DNA from: an uncultured Bacilli bacterium
GTDB lineage: Bacteria; Bacillota_I; Bacilli_A; RF39; UBA660
DNA length: 64,000 bases
NCBI GenBank assembly: GCA_934141245.1
Contig: CAKPCB010000002.1
Span: 43,076 to 107,075, forward strand
Reading direction: 5' to 3'
Numbering within the stretch: position 1 is the stretch's first letter; the number at the start of each line of letters is the position of its first letter. Below, in pieces: positions 47,557-61,485 of this stretch. The notes below the pieces were generated by a model, which saw nothing but the letters and a program-made list of their open reading frames with translations, was not told the origin of the DNA and searched no databases. The position numbers were made by a program, and so were the translations under genes.

Positions 47557-48168
47557 TTATTTTTTATTTAATACTTTATATTTTACATTTAACGAATTAT
47601 TAGAATAATAATTATCATGTATTTGCTTAATAAGTTCTGTAATTTCATCAGCAGTATAAAATGACTTAGGATAAAGCATTTCCTTTATATAATAAGTAAT
47701 ATTTTTATGATCTAAAACTCTATATCCATACTCATTATTTAATATACATTCACTAATATCTTCAATATACTGTTTTTCTTCTAATGATTCAGGATTCCTG
47801 TACCATTCTGGAAGAATAATAACTTCATCCACTAATAATTCACCATTTTCAACATTTAACATTTGAAAATGTATATTTTGTGATTTGTCTTTATATATAT
47901 TATTTCTTAATAACAATATCTCATTAGTACCTGATTTATCTATTAAGTATATATTTACATGTTGTAAATTAGAAATATCAACAACACTAGTTAAATGATA
48001 AGAACTTTCGCTTAAAGTATATGAAAACCCTAATACTTTTTTATCAATATTTTCATTATTACTACAACCTGAAAATAAAACTGTAGTAGCAATTGAAAGA
48101 GCTAATACACTCTTAAGAACCTTTAAGTTTATAGTTCCTTTATATTTATTCTCTCTATTTAATTTCAA
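47557..48168 (-). CDS. Putative lipoprotein (first gene of the lipoprotein-ABC-FtsX cluster)
   Basis: 203 aa; signal peptide with lipobox LFSGC. Confidence 0.45.
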   Translation of the reverse strand: MKLNRENKYKGTINLKVLKSVLALSIATTVLFSGCSNNENIDKKVLGFSYTLSESSYHLTSVVDISNLQHVNIYLIDKSGTNEILLLRNNIYKDKSQNIHFQMLNVENGELLVDEVIILPEWYRNPESLEEKQYIEDISECILNNEYGYRVLDHKNITYYIKEMLYPKSFYTADEITELIKQIHDNYYSNNSLNVKYKVLNKK

Positions 48169-51218: not shown

Positions 51219-52061
51219 TTAAAATTTTAATTGCTCACCACTGTATTGATTAAATTCAATTTTTTTAACTTTTTTTACTTCCTGATGTTCAACTTCTTTT
51301 GGGTTAGAAGATTGAGGCATATTTTTATAATCCTGATATGTTAGAAATAGTCCTCTATATAAATGATATTTATTAAATTCATCTAATAAATAATCTTTAT
51401 TATGCTCTAATATGCATGTAGCCTCACTATCTAAGCCAGTTGACTTATATATCTTATTTATATTAATCATTTCTCTTACACTATTTATAATAGATTTTGT
51501 TTTGAAATGAGAAGAATTTAAATAAAATGATGAGAATGATGTATCAAATGTAGATAGTTTTTGTACCAACATATCTTTTTGCCTCAAGATCTTATAATCT
51601 TTTAATTTATCATTTTCAATATACTGCAATAATTCAATTAATTCATAATTATTATAAACTAGCTCAATAAATCTATTTGATCCATTAGTAGAATAAGTAG
51701 CAGACAAATCATATACGTCCTTAATTATTGATAATCTTTTTAACAAATCCTCTTCACTAGAAAATTGTGAAGTAAACCTATCTATTTCACTTAATTGATG
51801 TTTTACAGACTTATTAACTTTAGACATAGAAATATTTCTATCTATATTTATCATTCTATATAAGTATTTATTTTCTTTTGACAATTTAAAGTCAATTACT
51901 TGATCACTAGCTGCATATTTTATTCTACATAATATAACAAACCTGTTAATAGCTTTATTTTTCATATAATCCCCCGCTGTTGAGGAGATTATATCATATT
52001 TTAAGTAATAAGTCAAAAAAAAAGAATGCTTTTTGCATTCTACCTGTTTACTAATAAGCAA
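51219..52061 (-). CDS. Hypothetical protein (start possibly at the internal Met MKNKAINRF...)
   Basis: 280 aa, no recognisable motif. Confidence 0.3.
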   Translation of the reverse strand: MLISKQVECKKHSFFLTYYLKYDIISSTAGDYMKNKAINRFVILCRIKYAASDQVIDFKLSKENKYLYRMINIDRNISMSKVNKSVKHQLSEIDRFTSQFSSEEDLLKRLSIIKDVYDLSATYSTNGSNRFIELVYNNYELIELLQYIENDKLKDYKILRQKDMLVQKLSTFDTSFSSFYLNSSHFKTKSIINSVREMININKIYKSTGLDSEATCILEHNKDYLLDEFNKYHLYRGLFLTYQDYKNMPQSSNPKEVEHQEVKKVKKIEFNQYSGEQLKF

Positions 52062-55386: not shown

Positions 55387-56373
55387 TTAATTCTTTGCAA
55401 ATAGTTTCCTTTTTATTCTTGGTTCCGCAGCTTTAAAAACTGTCTCAAACATTTTCTGTTTATTTTCTGCTTCATTAAATTCTACAAATGAAAAAATTAT
55501 ATCATCTAAAATTGGCCCTACACAATATTTATCTAATAAATTATTAAAGCTATTTGTTTCTATTATTTTCAATATGATTTGACAATTCTTAGCTATTGAA
55601 TTATTTAATTCCCGATATTTTTCAATAATATAAAAATCTTTAATCATATATAGAATTAGTAAATCATAATTATATCTATCATTTTCACGAAGTATTTCAA
55701 TAAAATCTCTTACAAATGATCTTGCATAGTATTCTGATATATAATCTTCAAAATTATATTCTTTTTTAAAATCTTCTAGATAATTCAAATACATACAATA
55801 TATATCATCTTTTTCATATAACTGCGAATATAATATTTTATCAAAAATATATAAAGGATTAATCCTTTCAAGATATTTATCAGTTTTTACATCATACATT
55901 GATTTGTGATGTTTTTCAAAATTCGTATAGCTTATAAAATCTAGTGATGAAAGCAACATAGATTGTAATAATTCGGGATATTCATTAATATAATCAATAA
56001 CATCATCTACAGATTTAAATTTTGACATTTCCTCATATGAATAGTCATAATCAATAGTAACATAATTTTCATCTGAATCGGATAATAAATCAGGATTGTT
56101 TAGTAGCCAAAAATCTGTCCAAATAACACCAATAACTTTTTTATATAATTCATAATTTGTGTTAGCCATTCTATTAAAAATTGTGGTAAAATCAAATATT
56201 TCTTTTTCATCCTCACCATATTCATAGTATTCAGCATCAATATCATCATCAATATCACCATCAACATCAAAGAAATTTAAAGATTGTTTAAAAATTTCAT
56301 TTAAATGTTCATTATATAAATCTTTAACAAAATTTCTTATAATATCATTTGGATTATTAACATCTATTCTCAT
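55387..56373 (-). CDS. Hypothetical acidic cytoplasmic protein
   Basis: 328 aa; Asp/Glu/Tyr-rich N-terminal region, no known motif. Confidence 0.3.
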   Translation of the reverse strand: MRIDVNNPNDIIRNFVKDLYNEHLNEIFKQSLNFFDVDGDIDDDIDAEYYEYGEDEKEIFDFTTIFNRMANTNYELYKKVIGVIWTDFWLLNNPDLLSDSDENYVTIDYDYSYEEMSKFKSVDDVIDYINEYPELLQSMLLSSLDFISYTNFEKHHKSMYDVKTDKYLERINPLYIFDKILYSQLYEKDDIYCMYLNYLEDFKKEYNFEDYISEYYARSFVRDFIEILRENDRYNYDLLILYMIKDFYIIEKYRELNNSIAKNCQIILKIIETNSFNNLLDKYCVGPILDDIIFSFVEFNEAENKQKMFETVFKAAEPRIKRKLFAKN

Positions 56374-56500: not shown

Positions 56501-57382
56501 TTAAACATTTCCATTAATTTGACTCATAACTTCGCTAGCAAAATCATCTACTCTTTTTTCCATTCCTTCACCAACTTCGAAACGAACAAATTTTACAACT
56601 TCTGAATTGTTAGCTTTAGCATAACCTGCTACATCTAAGTCTGGATCTTTAATAAATGCTTGTTCAAGTAAACAAACTTCCTTATAAAATTTATTTATTC
56701 TTCCGTTAACCATTTTTTCAGCTATTTCTGCAGGTTTTCCCTCCTCAACAGCTTGTTTTTTAATAACTTCTTTTTCATGATCAACTACATCTGCAGGAAC
56801 ATCATTTCTTGATAAATATCCAGGATTCATTGCTGCAACATGCATAGCTACATCCCTTGCTACATCTTCATTATTTCCATTCAAAACAGTAACAACATTT
56901 ATTTTACCAAGATTTTGATGATTATAAACACCAAATACTTGATTATCATTTTTTTCTATAATTTCAAATCTTCTAAAACTAATCTTTTCACCAATTTTTG
57001 CAATCAAAGCAATTAAACTAGTGTTAACAGTTCCATCTCTCATAGGAAGTTCTAAAGCTTCTTCAATACTATTTGGTTTATTAGTTAAAACAGTTTTAGC
57101 AAGTTCTGATACAAAACTAGTAAATTCTGAATTCTTTGCAACAAAGTCAGTTTCAGAATTAACTTCCAATATAACAGCTTTATTTCCATCAACTAATATT
57201 TGACTTAAACCTTCAGCAGCAATTCTAGATTCTTTTTTAGCTGCCTTTGAAATTCCTTTTTCTCTTAACCAGTCAATAGCTTTATCCATATCACCATTTG
57301 ATTCTTGTAAAGCTTTTTTACAATCTAGCATTCCTGCGCCAGTTTTTTCTCTTAAATTTTTTACATCACTCGCACTAAACAT
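56501..57382 (-). CDS. tsf: Translation elongation factor Ts
   Basis: Start moved to MFSASDVKNLREKTGAGMLDCKKAL (RBS AGGTGA 6 nt upstream); UBA-like N-terminus and EF-Ts dimerisation domains. Confidence 0.9.
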   Translation of the reverse strand: MFSASDVKNLREKTGAGMLDCKKALQESNGDMDKAIDWLREKGISKAAKKESRIAAEGLSQILVDGNKAVILEVNSETDFVAKNSEFTSFVSELAKTVLTNKPNSIEEALELPMRDGTVNTSLIALIAKIGEKISFRRFEIIEKNDNQVFGVYNHQNLGKINVVTVLNGNNEDVARDVAMHVAAMNPGYLSRNDVPADVVDHEKEVIKKQAVEEGKPAEIAEKMVNGRINKFYKEVCLLEQAFIKDPDLDVAGYAKANNSEVVKFVRFEVGEGMEKRVDDFASEVMSQINGNV

Positions 57383-57391
57383 AATAATCAC

Positions 57392-58396
57392 CTATTTTAA
57401 AACTTCAAGAAGTTCGTCTTTCTTTAATTTTGAATATCCTTTAATGCCTTTTATTTTAGCCATTTCTTTTAGTTCAGTTAAAGTCATATCTTTAATATCT
57501 TTCATAACATCTTTTAAGTCTTCAACAACTTCTTTTTTTGCTTCTTTTATGTCTTTTTTTGTAGACTTGATATTTTCTTTAATAGTTTCCTTAATTTCTT
57601 CTTTTTTATCCTTTACAGATTCTTTAATATCTTCAATTTCTTCTTTAATTTCTTGCTTCTTTGCTTTCTTATCTAATTTATTTTTATCTTCTTCTGTTAA
57701 ATAATCAATTACTTCATTTCCATTAACTTCTGCAATTGCATTAGTTAAAGCACCAAGCATTAATTTAACACTTCTAACTGCATCATCATTTCCTGGAATA
57801 ACATAATCTACCATATCTGGATCACAGTTAGTATCTACTATACCAAATACTGGAATATTTAATATTCTAGCTTCTTTAATAGCATTTTCTTCTTTACGTG
57901 GATCAACTATAACTATTGCATTAGGCAATTTTTTCATTTCTCTAATACCACGTAAGTTCTTATTTAATTTATCATACTCTTTTTTAATTTTAATTACTTC
58001 TTTTTTTGGTAAAAGATCAAAAGTTCCATCATTTTCCATTGTTTCGATTTCTTCTAATCTTTTAATTCTAGAACGAATTGTTTTAAAGTTAGTTAAAGTA
58101 CCACCAAGCCATCTTTCATTAACAAAATACATATTTGTTCTTGTAGCACATTCCTCTGCTGCTTCTTGAGCTTGCTTTTTAGTACCTACAAACAAAACTT
58201 TTCCCTCTGCTTCTGCAATCTCTTTCATTGCATTATAAGCTTCATCAATTTTTTGAGATGTTTTTTGTAAATCAATTATATATATATCATCACGTGAAGT
58301 GAAAATATATTCTCTCATTTTTGGATTCCATCTTCTTTTTTGGTGTCCAAAGTGAACACCTGCTTCTAATAAATAATTCATTGAAACTACTGTCAT
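57392..58396 (-). CDS. rpsB: 30S ribosomal protein S2 with ~85-aa C-terminal Lys/Glu-rich extension ending in a Rho_N/SAP-like motif
   Basis: 334 aa (canonical S2 is ~240-260); core S2 motifs ([11 protein letters not shown]...); tail ...[32 protein letters not shown]. Confidence 0.9.
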
Positions 58397-58483
58397 TTTT
58401 TTCTTTCTCCTTTTCGTTATACACTTATTAATTTCTAAAATTTATCACCCTAAGGCACTAGATAAATCAATTCATTAATATGA

Positions 58484-59044
58484 CTATTTTAATAAATCTA
58501 CTATATCAGCTTTTTTAGAACCAGCTGGTATAGCAATGTTTTTTGATGCTGCTAATTCTTTTAATTCTGCAACTGTCATTTTTGATAAGTCTTTTTCTTC
58601 TTTAACTGTTTCTTTTTTTGCAGTTTTAGTATCAGCTTTTACATTTACAGATTCTTTTTTTACTGCAACGGGTTTACCTTCTTTTTTTGCCTTTAATGCT
58701 TCTTTTGCAACATTTACCATTTCAGTAAATGCCTTTGGATCATTAATTGCAATTTCTGAAGCCATTTTTCTATTTATTTCAACACCTGCATAATTTAAGC
58801 CTTCAATAAATCTAGAATAACTAATTTCATTTTCACGACATGCAGCATTGATTCTAGTAATCCATAATTTTCTAAAATCTCTTTTCTTTTGTCTTCTATC
58901 ACGGAACGCATATTGTCCTGAATGCATTAATTGTTCTTTGGCAGTTTTATATAATCTGTGTTTGCTTCCAAAATAACCTTTAGCTGCTTTTAAAACTTTT
59001 TTATGGCGAGCTTTTGTAGTAACTCCATTTTTTACTCTTGTCAT
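58484..59044 (-). CDS. rplT: 50S ribosomal protein L20 with ~68-aa C-terminal extension ending in a Rho_N/SAP-like motif
   Basis: 186 aa (canonical L20 is ~118); core [19 protein letters not shown]...; tail ...[31 protein letters not shown]. Confidence 0.9.
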
Positions 59045-59067: not shown

Positions 59068-59253
59068 TTAGATTAAATCCTTTAATCTATTAAAGTCAGC
59101 TTTACTTAACTGAGAACCTTTTCTATTTTTTCTGTTAACATTTGTTGATTTATAACCAGTATTATGTCTACTTCCTGGTTTTCCAATTTTGTAATCATTT
59201 TTTCTTTTGTTAAAAACCTTTTTACTTCCTTTATGAGTTTTTAATTTTGGCAT
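59068..59253 (-). CDS. rpmI: 50S ribosomal protein L35
   Basis: 61 aa, MPKLKTHKGSKK... basic; position between infC and rplT. Confidence 0.8.
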   Translation of the reverse strand: MPKLKTHKGSKKVFNKRKNDYKIGKPGSRHNTGYKSTNVNRKNRKGSQLSKADFNRLKDLI

Positions 59254-59269
59254 AATTTTCCTCCTATAA

Positions 59270-59794
59270 TTATTTTTTTGGTGTTAATAACATTATCATA
59301 CTTCTACCATCAAGTTTAGGTTGTTGTTCAACAACTGATAAGTCTTCAAGTCTAGCTGCAAATTTTAATAATACATCCTTACCAATTTCAGTATGTGCCA
59401 TTTGTCTTCCTTTAAATCTTATTGTTACTTTTATTCTATCACCTTTTTTAAGATATTTAGTAACCTGTTTTATTTTAGTTTCAAAATCACCAACATCTAT
59501 TACTGGCGATAGTCTAAACTCCTTCAATTCAGACATATTAGCTCTTTGCTTCTTTAAAGCTTCTTTTTCTTTTTTTGCTCTTTCATACTTGTATTTGTTG
59601 TAATCCATCACCTTACAAACTGGTGGATTTGCATTTGGACTTAATAATACCAAATCTAATCCAGCATAATTTGCTAGTGTTAATGCATCTGCAATTGGTT
59701 TTACTCCAACTTGCTCTCCATTTGGTCCAATAACTAAAACTTGACTTACTTTAATTTGCTCATTAATAAGCAGATTATTTTTAGTATTTGCTAT
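59270..59794 (-). CDS. infC: Translation initiation factor IF-3, probable non-AUG (AUA) start
   Basis: IF-3 N- and C-domain sequence (INEQIKVSQVLVIGPNGEQVGV...); GGAGGTG RBS (revcomp of 59801-59807) 6 nt upstream of an ATA codon; the track's upstream Met extension lacks an RBS and adds non-IF3 sequence. Confidence 0.8.
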   Translation of the reverse strand: MANTKNNLLINEQIKVSQVLVIGPNGEQVGVKPIADALTLANYAGLDLVLLSPNANPPVCKVMDYNKYKYERAKKEKEALKKQRANMSELKEFRLSPVIDVGDFETKIKQVTKYLKKGDRIKVTIRFKGRQMAHTEIGKDVLLKFAARLEDLSVVEQQPKLDGRSMIMLLTPKK

Positions 59795-59799
59795 ATAAA

Positions 59800-59945
59800 A
59801 CACCTCCATTAAATATAAAAAGTGGACACAATGTATCCACTTAAAGCACAATCAAATTTAATAAATTAAAATCAATCAGGCATAAACCCACTGCTATACG
59901 CTAAGTCGGGTGGATGTGGATGCATCTCTTTCCTCTTTAAATTTA
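59800..59945 (-). ncRNA. Structured 5' leader of the infC-rpmI-rplT operon (L20-leader-type autoregulatory RNA)
   Basis: ~150-nt leader between the promoter and the infC RBS containing an unusually GC-rich, self-complementary block (gatgcatccacatccacccgacttagcgtatagcagtgggtttatgc) in a 25% GC genome. Confidence 0.5.
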
Positions 59946-59952
59946 CGTTAAT

Positions 59953-59981
59953 ATTGTAATATAATTACTTCTATTTGTCAA
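59953..59981 (-). promoter_or_regulatory. Sigma-A promoter of the infC operon, TTGACA-17-TACAAT (minus strand)
   Basis: Revcomp of 59976-59981 = TTGACA; 17-nt spacer; revcomp of 59953-59958 = TACAAT. Confidence 0.65.
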
Positions 59982-60441
59982 TTGTTTTTTTCTTTTCTAG
60001 CATTTTAATATATGAATCTTTAAACATTTCGGAAAAACTAAAATCATTTTCAAGTAAACCAAATTCATTTAAAATCTCCATAAATTCAAAATATTCTTGA
60101 TTGCATAGACCAGCAGAGTTTAACAAAATAAATTTGTTATAAATTTCCAAAAGCTTAATTGCATACTCTTTTGATATTATTTTCTCATCAACTAATATTT
60201 TAACTTTATAATTTATTAAAACTATATCAATTCTTGTATCATCATCAGAATTATAAAAACTATTTGTTTGATTTGAATTAATTATTTCACCCATTGTTCT
60301 TGTTTTAAATAATTTTTCTAATGATCTATTTAACATCAAATCAATTTCTCTTAGAAAATTTACTGTTTTAACCGGATTCATTATTTTAATACCTTTAACA
60401 CTATTACTCATACTTATTCCTTTCTCTACAGCAATTAACAC
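59971..60441 (-). CDS. Hypothetical protein
   Basis: 156 aa ORF, no recognisable motif. Confidence 0.3.
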   Translation of the reverse strand: MLIAVEKGISMSNSVKGIKIMNPVKTVNFLREIDLMLNRSLEKLFKTRTMGEIINSNQTNSFYNSDDDTRIDIVLINYKVKILVDEKIISKEYAIKLLEIYNKFILLNSAGLCNQEYFEFMEILNEFGLLENDFSFSEMFKDSYIKMLEKKKTIDK

Positions 60442-60498: not shown

Positions 60499-61485
60499 CT
60501 AATTTTCTCCTTCTTCTAACATTGTTGTAATAAATATTCCATATCCTTTTGTATTATCATTAACTATAGCATGAGTAACTGCCCCTATTATTTTATTATT
60601 TTGTATAATTGGACTACCACTCATACCTTTTATTACGCCATTTGTTTTATTTTTTAATCTTTCATCTGTTATTTCAAATAATATGTTTTTTGTCAAACCA
60701 TCTCGATTTACTTTAAGAACATTAATATCAAATTCTTCAATATTATTTTCATTTAAAACAGTTAATATTTTAGCACTACCGATCTCTATTTCATCTGGCT
60801 GTGCAACTTTTTTTAATCTAGTCCTATCAAATTTATTAGTATATTTACCAAAAATACCACTAATTGTGTTTTCATTTATTGTTCCATATGTTATATCATC
60901 ATTAAACCTTGCATTTTTTTCACCTGTCGTTGTATCAGTACTTTTAGTTATACCTACTATACTGGCACCAAATATTTTTCCATCTTTTACTTCAATTTTT
61001 ATATTTGAGTTTGATTCAATAATCTCGTGGCCTAAGGCACCATAAATTTTTGTATTAGGATCTATATATGTTAGAGTTCCAATTCCAGTTATTTGATCTT
61101 TTACATATAAGCCCGTTTTATATACATTATTGCTATCCTTAACTAGGCTTAATTTAATATTAGTTTCACTGTTATTTCTTAATACAGTAAACTCTACAGG
61201 ATTATCATTTATATTTTCATTTATTTTTTTAATCATATCATTTATAGAGGTTACTTCTTTATTCGAAACTTTTATGATTTTATCCCCATTAATAAATCCT
61301 GCATCTTTTCCAATATCTTTCCCATTTACTTTATAAAAGCCAACTACCATTATCCTTTTTGAATTGATTTCTATACCAACATTATTTCCTCCAACAACAA
61401 CATAATCAGAATAAGCTAGCACATTAAATGGCATAATAAGTAATAGAAGAAGAATTATTTTTTGTAGTTTTATTTTAAAATTCAT
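60499..61485 (-). CDS. spoIVB: SpoIVB-type sporulation serine peptidase (PDZ + S55 peptidase domains)
   Basis: 328 aa; signal anchor, PDZ (GDKIIKVSNKEVTSINDMIK), catalytic YGALGHEI and GMSGSPII motifs. Confidence 0.7.
   Translation of the reverse strand: MNFKIKLQKIILLLLLIMPFNVLAYSDYVVVGGNNVGIEINSKRIMVVGFYKVNGKDIGKDAGFINGDKIIKVSNKEVTSINDMIKKINENINDNPVEFTVLRNNSETNIKLSLVKDSNNVYKTGLYVKDQITGIGTLTYIDPNTKIYGALGHEIIESNSNIKIEVKDGKIFGASIVGITKSTDTTTGEKNARFNDDITYGTINENTISGIFGKYTNKFDRTRLKKVAQPDEIEIGSAKILTVLNENNIEEFDINVLKVNRDGLTKNILFEITDERLKNKTNGVIKGMSGSPIIQNNKIIGAVTHAIVNDNTKGYGIFITTMLEEGEN

Follow-up and report, generated by a model that had tools for sequence, protein, structure and literature searches.

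A shared Rho_N/HeH-type terminal module on ribosomal proteins uS2 and bL20 of an uncultured Bacilli bacterium

Introduction

Extensions of ribosomal proteins are usually taken as lineage noise. A described system with the same plan as the one reported here is the NCBIfam model NF011109 (PRK14537), the '50S ribosomal protein L20/unknown domain fusion protein', in which a charged linker joins an L20 core to a terminal domain of ~35 residues. The domain is labeled 'unknown' in this model, which is confined to L20, so that fusions to S2, L21 and L27 fall outside it. Here we analyzed a 64,000-nucleotide stretch of DNA from an uncultured Bacilli bacterium (contig CAKPCB010000002.1 of assembly GCA_934141245.1; hereafter the window), in which uS2 (rpsB) and bL20 (rplT) both follow this plan and end in related modules of the Rho_N/HeH type. 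An earlier note on positions 57395-58690, which run from the last S2 codon through the first codon of the L20 extension, had proposed that the same Rho_N-like motif is appended to both proteins.

Several other systems resemble the tails in part. The N-terminal helical region of the Rho factor (PF07498) shares with them a sequence motif and a predicted helix/extended loop/helix fold; the match is limited to model positions 1-32 of 43, neither the OB fold nor the ATPase of Rho is present, and the module is C-terminal instead of N-terminal. The SAP and HeH (LEM-like) motifs of Ku70, Tho1 and FAN1 are of the same small fold class as the window modules but belong to eukaryotic chromatin or DNA-repair proteins, unlike the ribosomal proteins of the window. 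SAP, HeH/LEM-like and Rho_N domains form a nucleic-acid-binding class. In Arabidopsis RHON1, a Rho-N motif of ~40 residues stands at the extreme C-terminus after a highly charged stretch, as in the tailed ribosomal proteins, and gel shifts showed that the isolated C-terminal 40-amino acid motif binds fragments of 16S and 23S ribosomal RNA (rRNA) (PMC3458557). RHON1 acts as a partner of RNase E in plant chloroplasts and is not a ribosomal protein; the likeness noted here is one of layout.

Two further groups of models have similar outlines. The NCBIfam 'sunset domain variants' of S2 (NF051451) and L20 (NF051450) have one extra C-terminal domain in common on the same two ribosomal proteins. The window proteins scored 288.8 (cut-off 710) and 145.4 (cut-off 375) against them; only the core parts aligned (1-224 of 382 and 1-163 of 219), and the tails do not match the sunset part. 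A literature search found no paper on the meaning of 'sunset domain'. A Lys/Ala-rich C-terminal extension is present in bL21 of Flavobacterium johnsoniae (7jil chain R) and in long bL21 forms (NF008915 and NF008916). The 147-amino acid F. johnsoniae chain stops in a linker-like segment without the terminal module, and its L21 tail is not discussed in the paper on the ribosome structure.

Results

Two extended ribosomal proteins with a common terminal module

The window encodes uS2 as a protein of 334 amino acids (rpsB, 57392..58396, minus strand, stop codon TAG) and, adjoining it upstream, bL20 as a protein of 186 amino acids (rplT, 58484..59044, minus strand, stop codon TAG); the open reading frames (ORFs) and tail sequences reported for them earlier are correct. 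Each begins with a canonical core. Ribosomal_S2 matched uS2 residues 9-223 with an E-value of 2.6e-99 (core residues 1-225, 57722..58396), and Ribosomal_L20 matched bL20 residues 3-108 with an E-value of 1.3e-46 (core residues 1-118, 58691..59044); the equivalog models TIGR01011 (rpsB_bact) and TIGR01032 gave 343 bits (cut-off 76.3) and 166 bits (cut-off 65.65), respectively. The uS2 core is followed by a 75-residue linker (residues 226-300, 57497..57721) that includes 21 Lys, 15 Glu, 9 Asp and 8 Ile and has Ile or Val every 3-7 residues. The bL20 linker is 34 residues long (residues 119-152, 58589..58690) and rich in Lys, Glu, Val and Ala, with one Pro. The terminal modules occupy residues 301-334 of uS2 (57395..57496; Rho_N/HeH type) and residues 153-186 of bL20 (58487..58588; a diverged HeH/Rho_N-type copy). 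Judged from these parts, all encoded on the minus strand, the two proteins are almost certainly lineage-specific long forms composed of a canonical core, a Lys/Glu-rich spacer and a conserved 33-residue terminal module. As had been claimed, the extensions lie outside canonical S2 and L20, since chains from ribosome structures in the PDB align to the cores only.

The DNA coding for the S2 linker contains weak tandem repeats with a period of 9-21 nucleotides (57533-57670), and strains with S2 proteins at least 86% identical differ by in-frame linker indels of 4 amino acids (IKET) and 14 amino acids. The indels and repeats together indicate that the S2 linker lengthens and shortens by slippage. 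The 915 stop-to-stop segments of the window were all scanned, unfiltered, with a hidden Markov model (HMM) of the tail, which found two copies only (E-values of 1e-16 and 1e-13, the latter being L20 at 1.3e-13) and no further one, the next best segment having an E-value of 0.8; a regular-expression scan of the window likewise found no copies beyond the S2 and L20 tails.

The tails were then assigned to families with Pfam models. S2 matched Rho_N (PF07498) at residues 300-331 (E-value of 2.3e-7) and, with 31.1 bits, passed the gathering cut-off of 24.9; its isolated tail reached 37.7 bits. L20 stayed below the same cut-off, both as the full protein (E-value of 1.1e-3, 19.3 bits) and as the isolated tail (22.9 bits), and narrowly exceeded that of HeH/LEM (PF12949; residues 153-185, E-value of 8.3e-7, 29.1 bits against 28.9; isolated tail 32.6 bits). 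SAP (PF02037) was under its cut-off of 23.9 for both window proteins, with 17.7 bits (E-value of 2.8e-3) for L20, 22.5 bits for the isolated L20 tail and 14.4 bits for the isolated S2 tail. By these scores the S2 tail is a clear Rho_N domain; the L20 tail of the window, though of the same small fold class, is a diverged copy that barely reaches significance, through the related HeH model. The earlier claim that both tails fit Rho_N thus stands for S2, while L20 fits HeH above the cut-off and Rho_N just below it. Precomputed Rho_N, HeH or SAP matches are present for all top S2 and L20 homologs, and close L20 orthologs already have Rho_N in their precomputed Pfam architectures.

The L20 terminal module aligned with positions 187-224 of the 232 in NF011109 (E-value of 3.6e-5). 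Full-length L20 of the window nearly reached the cut-off of this model (170.8 bits against 187), and an L20 from Izemoplasmatales exceeded it (198.9 against 187). Positions ~187-224 of NF011109 align with both window tails and also with the L21 and L27 tails of Flavobacteriia. A reading of the window proteins as Rho factors was rejected, with TIGR00767 and NF006886 matching ~35 residues only at 15-17 bits against cut-offs of 315-509. Neither the OB/CSD domain of Rho nor a RecA-type ATPase was detected in the two proteins, which consist of ribosomal protein core and tail only.

AlphaFold2 (AF2) modeled the S2 tail with a predicted local distance difference test score (pLDDT) of 77.5, as helices at 19-29 and 39-46 separated by a 9-residue extended loop. 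The predicted tail thus has the two helices and extended loop, within ~35 residues, of the HeH/SAP/Rho_N fold class. The best Foldseek matches of the model were Rho N-terminal domains (1a8v and others), with a root mean square deviation of ~1.0 Å over 36 residues.

An old trait of a broad clade

Of 19 related genomes that show both rpsB and rplT, all 19 code for the two tails; 16 of these yielded both full-length tailed proteins, two were confirmed by hand and one is a Bacilli metagenome-assembled genome (MAG; L004, JAVWBB010000022.1, 1405-1970) in which an in-frame TAA ends the L20 ORF just before an intact tail-coding sequence. This TAA may reflect an error in sequencing or a recent loss, or may be a site of stop-codon read-through. 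The reading frame through the tails is unbroken in the window and in 18 of the 19 relatives. Database records place an identical S2 protein on 42 contigs, the longest of 495 kb, and 23 contigs carrying it were read back. The ortholog comparison suggested by the earlier note thus bore out its observation that two ribosomal proteins of one genome share a module, and extended it: the tails are an old trait of a broad clade and not peculiar to a single genome.

Among named relatives, 'Clostridium sp. CAG:710' has the S2 protein nearest to that of the window (89% identity). Uncultured gut Bacilli and MAGs labeled 'Tenericutes', Izemoplasmatales and Acholeplasmataceae contain the related loci; NCBI classes the named relatives as Bacilli incertae sedis or Mycoplasmatota incertae sedis.

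Constraint on the tails was estimated by comparing the window genes with those of 11-13 relatives. Synonymous distances (dS) are saturated and each tail has 33 codons, which makes dN/dS rough, and nonsynonymous distances (dN) and amino acid identity were used instead. For S2, dN was 0.06-0.21 in the core, 0.10-0.37 in the tail and 0.40-0.78 in the linker. The corresponding L20 values were 0.07-0.19, 0.33-0.63 and 0.40-1.0. At the protein level, the S2 tail therefore changes about as slowly as the S2 core, the L20 tail is intermediate between core and linker, and the linkers diverge fast.

The history of the two fusions can be read from their identities. At the DNA level the two window tails are 55% identical, with 15 of 33 third positions matching. 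Between orthologs, tail identity was 0.63 for S2-S2 and 0.62 for L20-L20, and S2-L20 identity was 0.55 within genomes versus 0.53 between genomes (permutation p 0.03). Because tails resemble their orthologs more closely than they resemble the other tail of the same genome, both fusions are old and vertically inherited. The low within-genome identity rules out recent duplication or gene conversion between the rplT and rpsB tails. Adjacency of rplT and rpsB was also considered as the cause of the shared tail and rejected. This synteny is found in the closest clade only, and both tails occur without gene adjacency in remoter lineages such as UMGS1613 (L048 and L069) and Izemoplasmatales (L010 and L024), so adjacency does not account for the sharing.

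The same module on four ribosomal proteins

The host range of the module was surveyed by a tail-profile scan of one genome per GTDB species; this confirmed at least 399 matches, of which the best 80 loci were analyzed further. In 78 of these best 80 loci the module forms the C-terminus of a ribosomal protein, namely S2, L20, L21 or L27. Pfam was applied to 77 extracted host ORFs and the two window proteins, 79 in all, and detected Ribosomal_S2 in 36, Ribosomal_L21p in 27, Ribosomal_L20 in 14 and Ribosomal_L27 and ParB_N in one each. Rho_N was found in 78 of the 79 at an E-value of 1e-3 or better, so that the Pfam check proposed for the tails came out in favor of the assignment. The S2 and L20 hosts are uncultured Bacilli and Mycoplasmatota-like MAGs, and the L21 hosts are Flavobacteriaceae and one member of the Balneolaceae. 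In a Crocinitomix MAG (L063, 2198-3111), linker and tail are attached to L27 and the upstream neighbor L21 has no tail, the reverse of the arrangement in 27 other Bacteroidota-type loci. That different lineages have one and the same module on S2, L20, L21 and L27 supports the modular acquisition that had been suggested. The bacteria concerned include abundant uncultured gut Bacilli and marine Flavobacteriia; the Flavobacteriia matches include named strains, among them Tenacibaculum and Polaribacter with L21 tails, which could make experiments possible.

Across the 79 proteins, the terminal 33 residues contain four invariant and eight nearly invariant columns. With these columns conserved and the linkers variable, simple basic tails lacking a terminal motif, which would have spoken against the earlier proposal, are excluded. 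The linkers are of low complexity, rich in Lys and Glu in Bacilli and in Lys, Ala and Pro in Flavobacteriia, and measure 55-111 amino acids on S2 (median 75), 25-46 on the 14 L20 homologs (median 33.5) and 23-55 on L21 (median 31). In the alignment, the L21 tails of Flavobacteriia and the L20 tails of Bacilli are visibly similar, a striking cross-phylum similarity that is owed in part to the selection of the best 80 profile matches.

The module as such is promiscuous. In a representative library, 7808 cluster representatives matched the tail profile at an E-value of 1e-3 or better, although the top ranks were taken by multi-repeat proteins and fragments from which little could be learned about ribosomal proteins. 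The only identifiable non-ribosomal host among the best 80 loci (L042 was masked) is a 231-amino acid ParB_N-like protein of Cyanobacteria bacterium UBA2566 (L011, 2416-3108), which ends in the same tail. Proteins of 38-88 amino acids annotated in Bacilli MAGs as 'Rho termination factor N-terminal domain-containing proteins', which ranked first in a search with the tail profile, were considered as free copies or donors and rejected: in the two loci that were checked (L085, 2085-2645; L086, 2040-3670), each small protein is an in-frame part of an intact rplT or rpsB ORF, and the full ribosomal protein genes are missing from the gene lists. Others of these small entries are fragments or chimeras.

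Two observations were made on further database entries. In Salinicoccus albus ARQJ01000012.1 (L087:2501-2686), a 61-amino acid Rho_N protein is encoded directly after a phage major capsid gene (Phage_capsid_4) within a prophage structural module; the same small module thus also exists as a genuine standalone phage protein. The metagenome entries P0020 (an 'S2' of 524 amino acids), P0122 and P0129 ('L20' proteins of 293 and 239 amino acids) have internal core duplications and look like assembly chimeras.

Discussion

One defined 33-residue module has been attached independently to four ribosomal proteins of both subunits in at least two phyla and has long been kept, and its independent attachment and long retention mark it as a functional accessory of the ribosome. 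At present this amounts to an annotation refinement and not a mechanistic discovery. Databases already record the feature, in precomputed Pfam architectures and in NF011109, and the refinement, which is well supported, is to identify the 'unknown domain' of the L20 fusion proteins as a Rho_N/HeH module that S2, L21 and L27 have as well.

As to function, we regard as the best explanation overall, and on balance a probable one, that the module is a nucleic-acid-binding head tethered to the ribosome surface. A small head on a flexible or semi-rigid tether would stand at the solvent surface of each subunit and reach out to RNA, either a surface rRNA element or mRNA near the ribosome, DNA being a less probable target; the ribosome would then carry built-in tethered RNA-binding arms, one per subunit. 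Membership of the SAP, HeH/LEM-like and Rho_N class, together with the RHON1 precedent, makes it reasonably likely that the module binds nucleic acid. That its ligand is RNA, and not DNA or a protein, is a more tentative assignment with somewhat less than an even chance of being right. A tether is favored over a segment packed on rRNA because the spacer is variable and of low complexity, and the head is probably not docked beside its host protein because the spacer is not conserved. If the module does bind RNA, DNA or the transcription machinery, it would represent a new means by which bacteria connect ribosomes with their substrates.

bL20 and bL21 are neighbors on the 50S subunit, and the 50S-borne tails may leave the same region. 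In the chloroplast ribosome, bL21c and the C-terminal extension of bL27c lie in the same solvent-side neighborhood (PMC5071890).

Several points weigh against a tethered nucleic-acid-binding head. The primary RNA site of Rho lies mainly in the adjoining OB fold; this fold is absent here, so RNA binding by the helical part alone is not guaranteed, and for the copies borne by ribosomal proteins binding is proposed from precedent. In the library searched, no paper was found on Rho_N, SAP or HeH fusions of ribosomal proteins. In the PDB, alignments to at least 60 distinct ribosome S2 chains stop at about residue 223-263 and those to 60 L20 chains at residue 127, and none of these chains includes the module. 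The query-normalized TM-score of the S2 tail model against 1a8v is 0.68, and the Foldseek E-values miss significance because the domain is so small. Modeling of full-length S2 from a shallow alignment gave a poor result (mean pLDDT 56.8), in which residues 250-302 form a single long helix at low confidence (pLDDT 33-44). The bL20 copy of the window, with its higher tail dN and the loss of the G-Y-S loop motif, is under weaker constraint, and the reliance on dN where dS is saturated adds to this side of the balance.

Among the alternatives, a DNA or nucleoid tether survives best, although we consider it unlikely. The module would bind double-stranded AT-rich DNA as eukaryotic SAP and LEM-like HeH domains do, and would thereby hold ribosomes (or S2 and L20 in free form) at the chromosome, in a genome of 25% GC. 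SAP and LEM-like domains are DNA binders, and when the tail profile was compared with PDB sequences, the SAP domain of Ku70 was the best match (6.8e-8), ahead of the N-terminus of Mycobacterium tuberculosis Rho (5.7e-6). The SAP model matches 35 of the 79 tails and HeH 31 of them, the SAP domain of FAN1 follows the Rho N-terminal domain among the Foldseek matches, and GC content along the window is 22-33%. Rho_N is nevertheless the best-fitting model in 78 of the 79 copies, ahead of SAP, and the Flavobacteriia, whose L21 bears the same module, are not organisms of extreme AT content. Moreover, RHON1, the one isolated C-terminal Rho-N motif to have been tested, bound RNA (PMC3458557).

The ligand could instead be a conserved protein, such as RNA polymerase, NusA or a hibernation or dimerization partner, and docking on it would couple ribosomes to transcription or to one another. 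The Rho N-terminal region docks on RNA polymerase/NusA in pre-termination complexes, and the fold matches of the S2 tail include Rho in two such RNA polymerase complexes (6xas and 6xav). The unusual conservation of the module across hosts and phyla would also fit a specific conserved partner, but part of this similarity comes from the selection of the best 80 profile matches; gene neighborhoods give no signal outside ribosomal protein operons, and the candidate partners are proposals only. We therefore rate protein docking as improbable, slightly more so than a DNA tether. Equally improbable is a single convergent system in which the same head, on long tethers and in several phyla, catches one conserved ligand. 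Candidates for such a ligand could be nascent mRNA leaving RNA polymerase or a polymerase/NusA complex, or the system could serve S1-like mRNA capture near the S2 site; in effect, transcription-translation coupling or the recruitment of mRNA would then be built into the ribosome. S2 linkers about twice as long as those of L20 and L21 (medians of 75 versus 33.5 and 31) would fit arms of both subunits reaching one target.

A more ordinary alternative is a cis extension, in which the tail folds back on its own rRNA beside S2 or L20 and stabilizes the ribosome without any trans ligand. Solvent-side, lineage-specific extensions of ribosomal proteins are common, for example in chloroplast ribosomes (PMC5071890), and the rRNA fragments bound by the RHON1 motif would agree with such a role (PMC3458557). 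Low-complexity, fast-evolving linkers with a roughly twofold range of length on each host protein are, however, atypical for a fixed path along rRNA, and the same head occurs at four different attachment points. On this evidence a cis extension seems a poor candidate, a shade weaker than protein docking.

That the tails are a non-functional appendage or artefact, whether a small downstream ORF joined on where a stop codon is missing, the product of misassembly or low-complexity sequence that grew neutrally, is highly improbable: some tailed database entries are chimeric (P0020, P0122 and P0129), many short matches are fragments and L004 has its in-frame TAA, but the identical S2 on 42 contigs, the continuous frame in the window and 18 of 19 relatives, and the conservation of the module as protein in the face of saturated synonymous sites effectively refute this explanation, and the tails are neither chance nor artefact.

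Genomic context

rplT and rpsB belong to a co-oriented block, infC-rpmI-rplT-rpsB-tsf, which has the same order in public gene calls on identical contigs. infC (59270..59809, minus strand) encodes IF3 of 179 amino acids according to the public gene call, with IF3_N and IF3_C domains. rpmI (59068..59253, minus strand), which is called on identical public contigs, encodes a bL35 of 61 amino acids that matches Ribosomal_L35p and has no extension. tsf (56501..57382, minus strand) encodes EF-Ts of 293 amino acids with EF-Ts_N and EF_TS domains, and its Shine-Dalgarno sequence AGGTGA (57388-57393) overlaps the TAG stop codon of rpsB.

Four ORFs around the ribosomal protein block, at 55387-56373, 59971-60441, 51219-52061 and 47557-48168 (all minus strand), had no Pfam match at an E-value of 1e-4 or better. 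The first of these lies immediately downstream of tsf and encodes 328 amino acids, with a very high content of Asp, Glu, Tyr and Asn. At 60499-61485 (minus strand), a SpoIVB-type S55 peptidase with a PDZ domain is encoded (E-value of 2e-66) in this genome of ~25% GC. Its presence hints at sporulation genes in a lineage whose relatives are often labeled Tenericutes or Mycoplasmatota. Along the window, ORFs are mostly on the plus strand at 1-25 kb and mostly on the minus strand at 26-64 kb, except for 39.7-42.1 kb, and the cumulative GC skew has its maximum near 26 kb; a skew peak together with an orientation switch is the pattern expected at a replication terminus or other strand-switch point.

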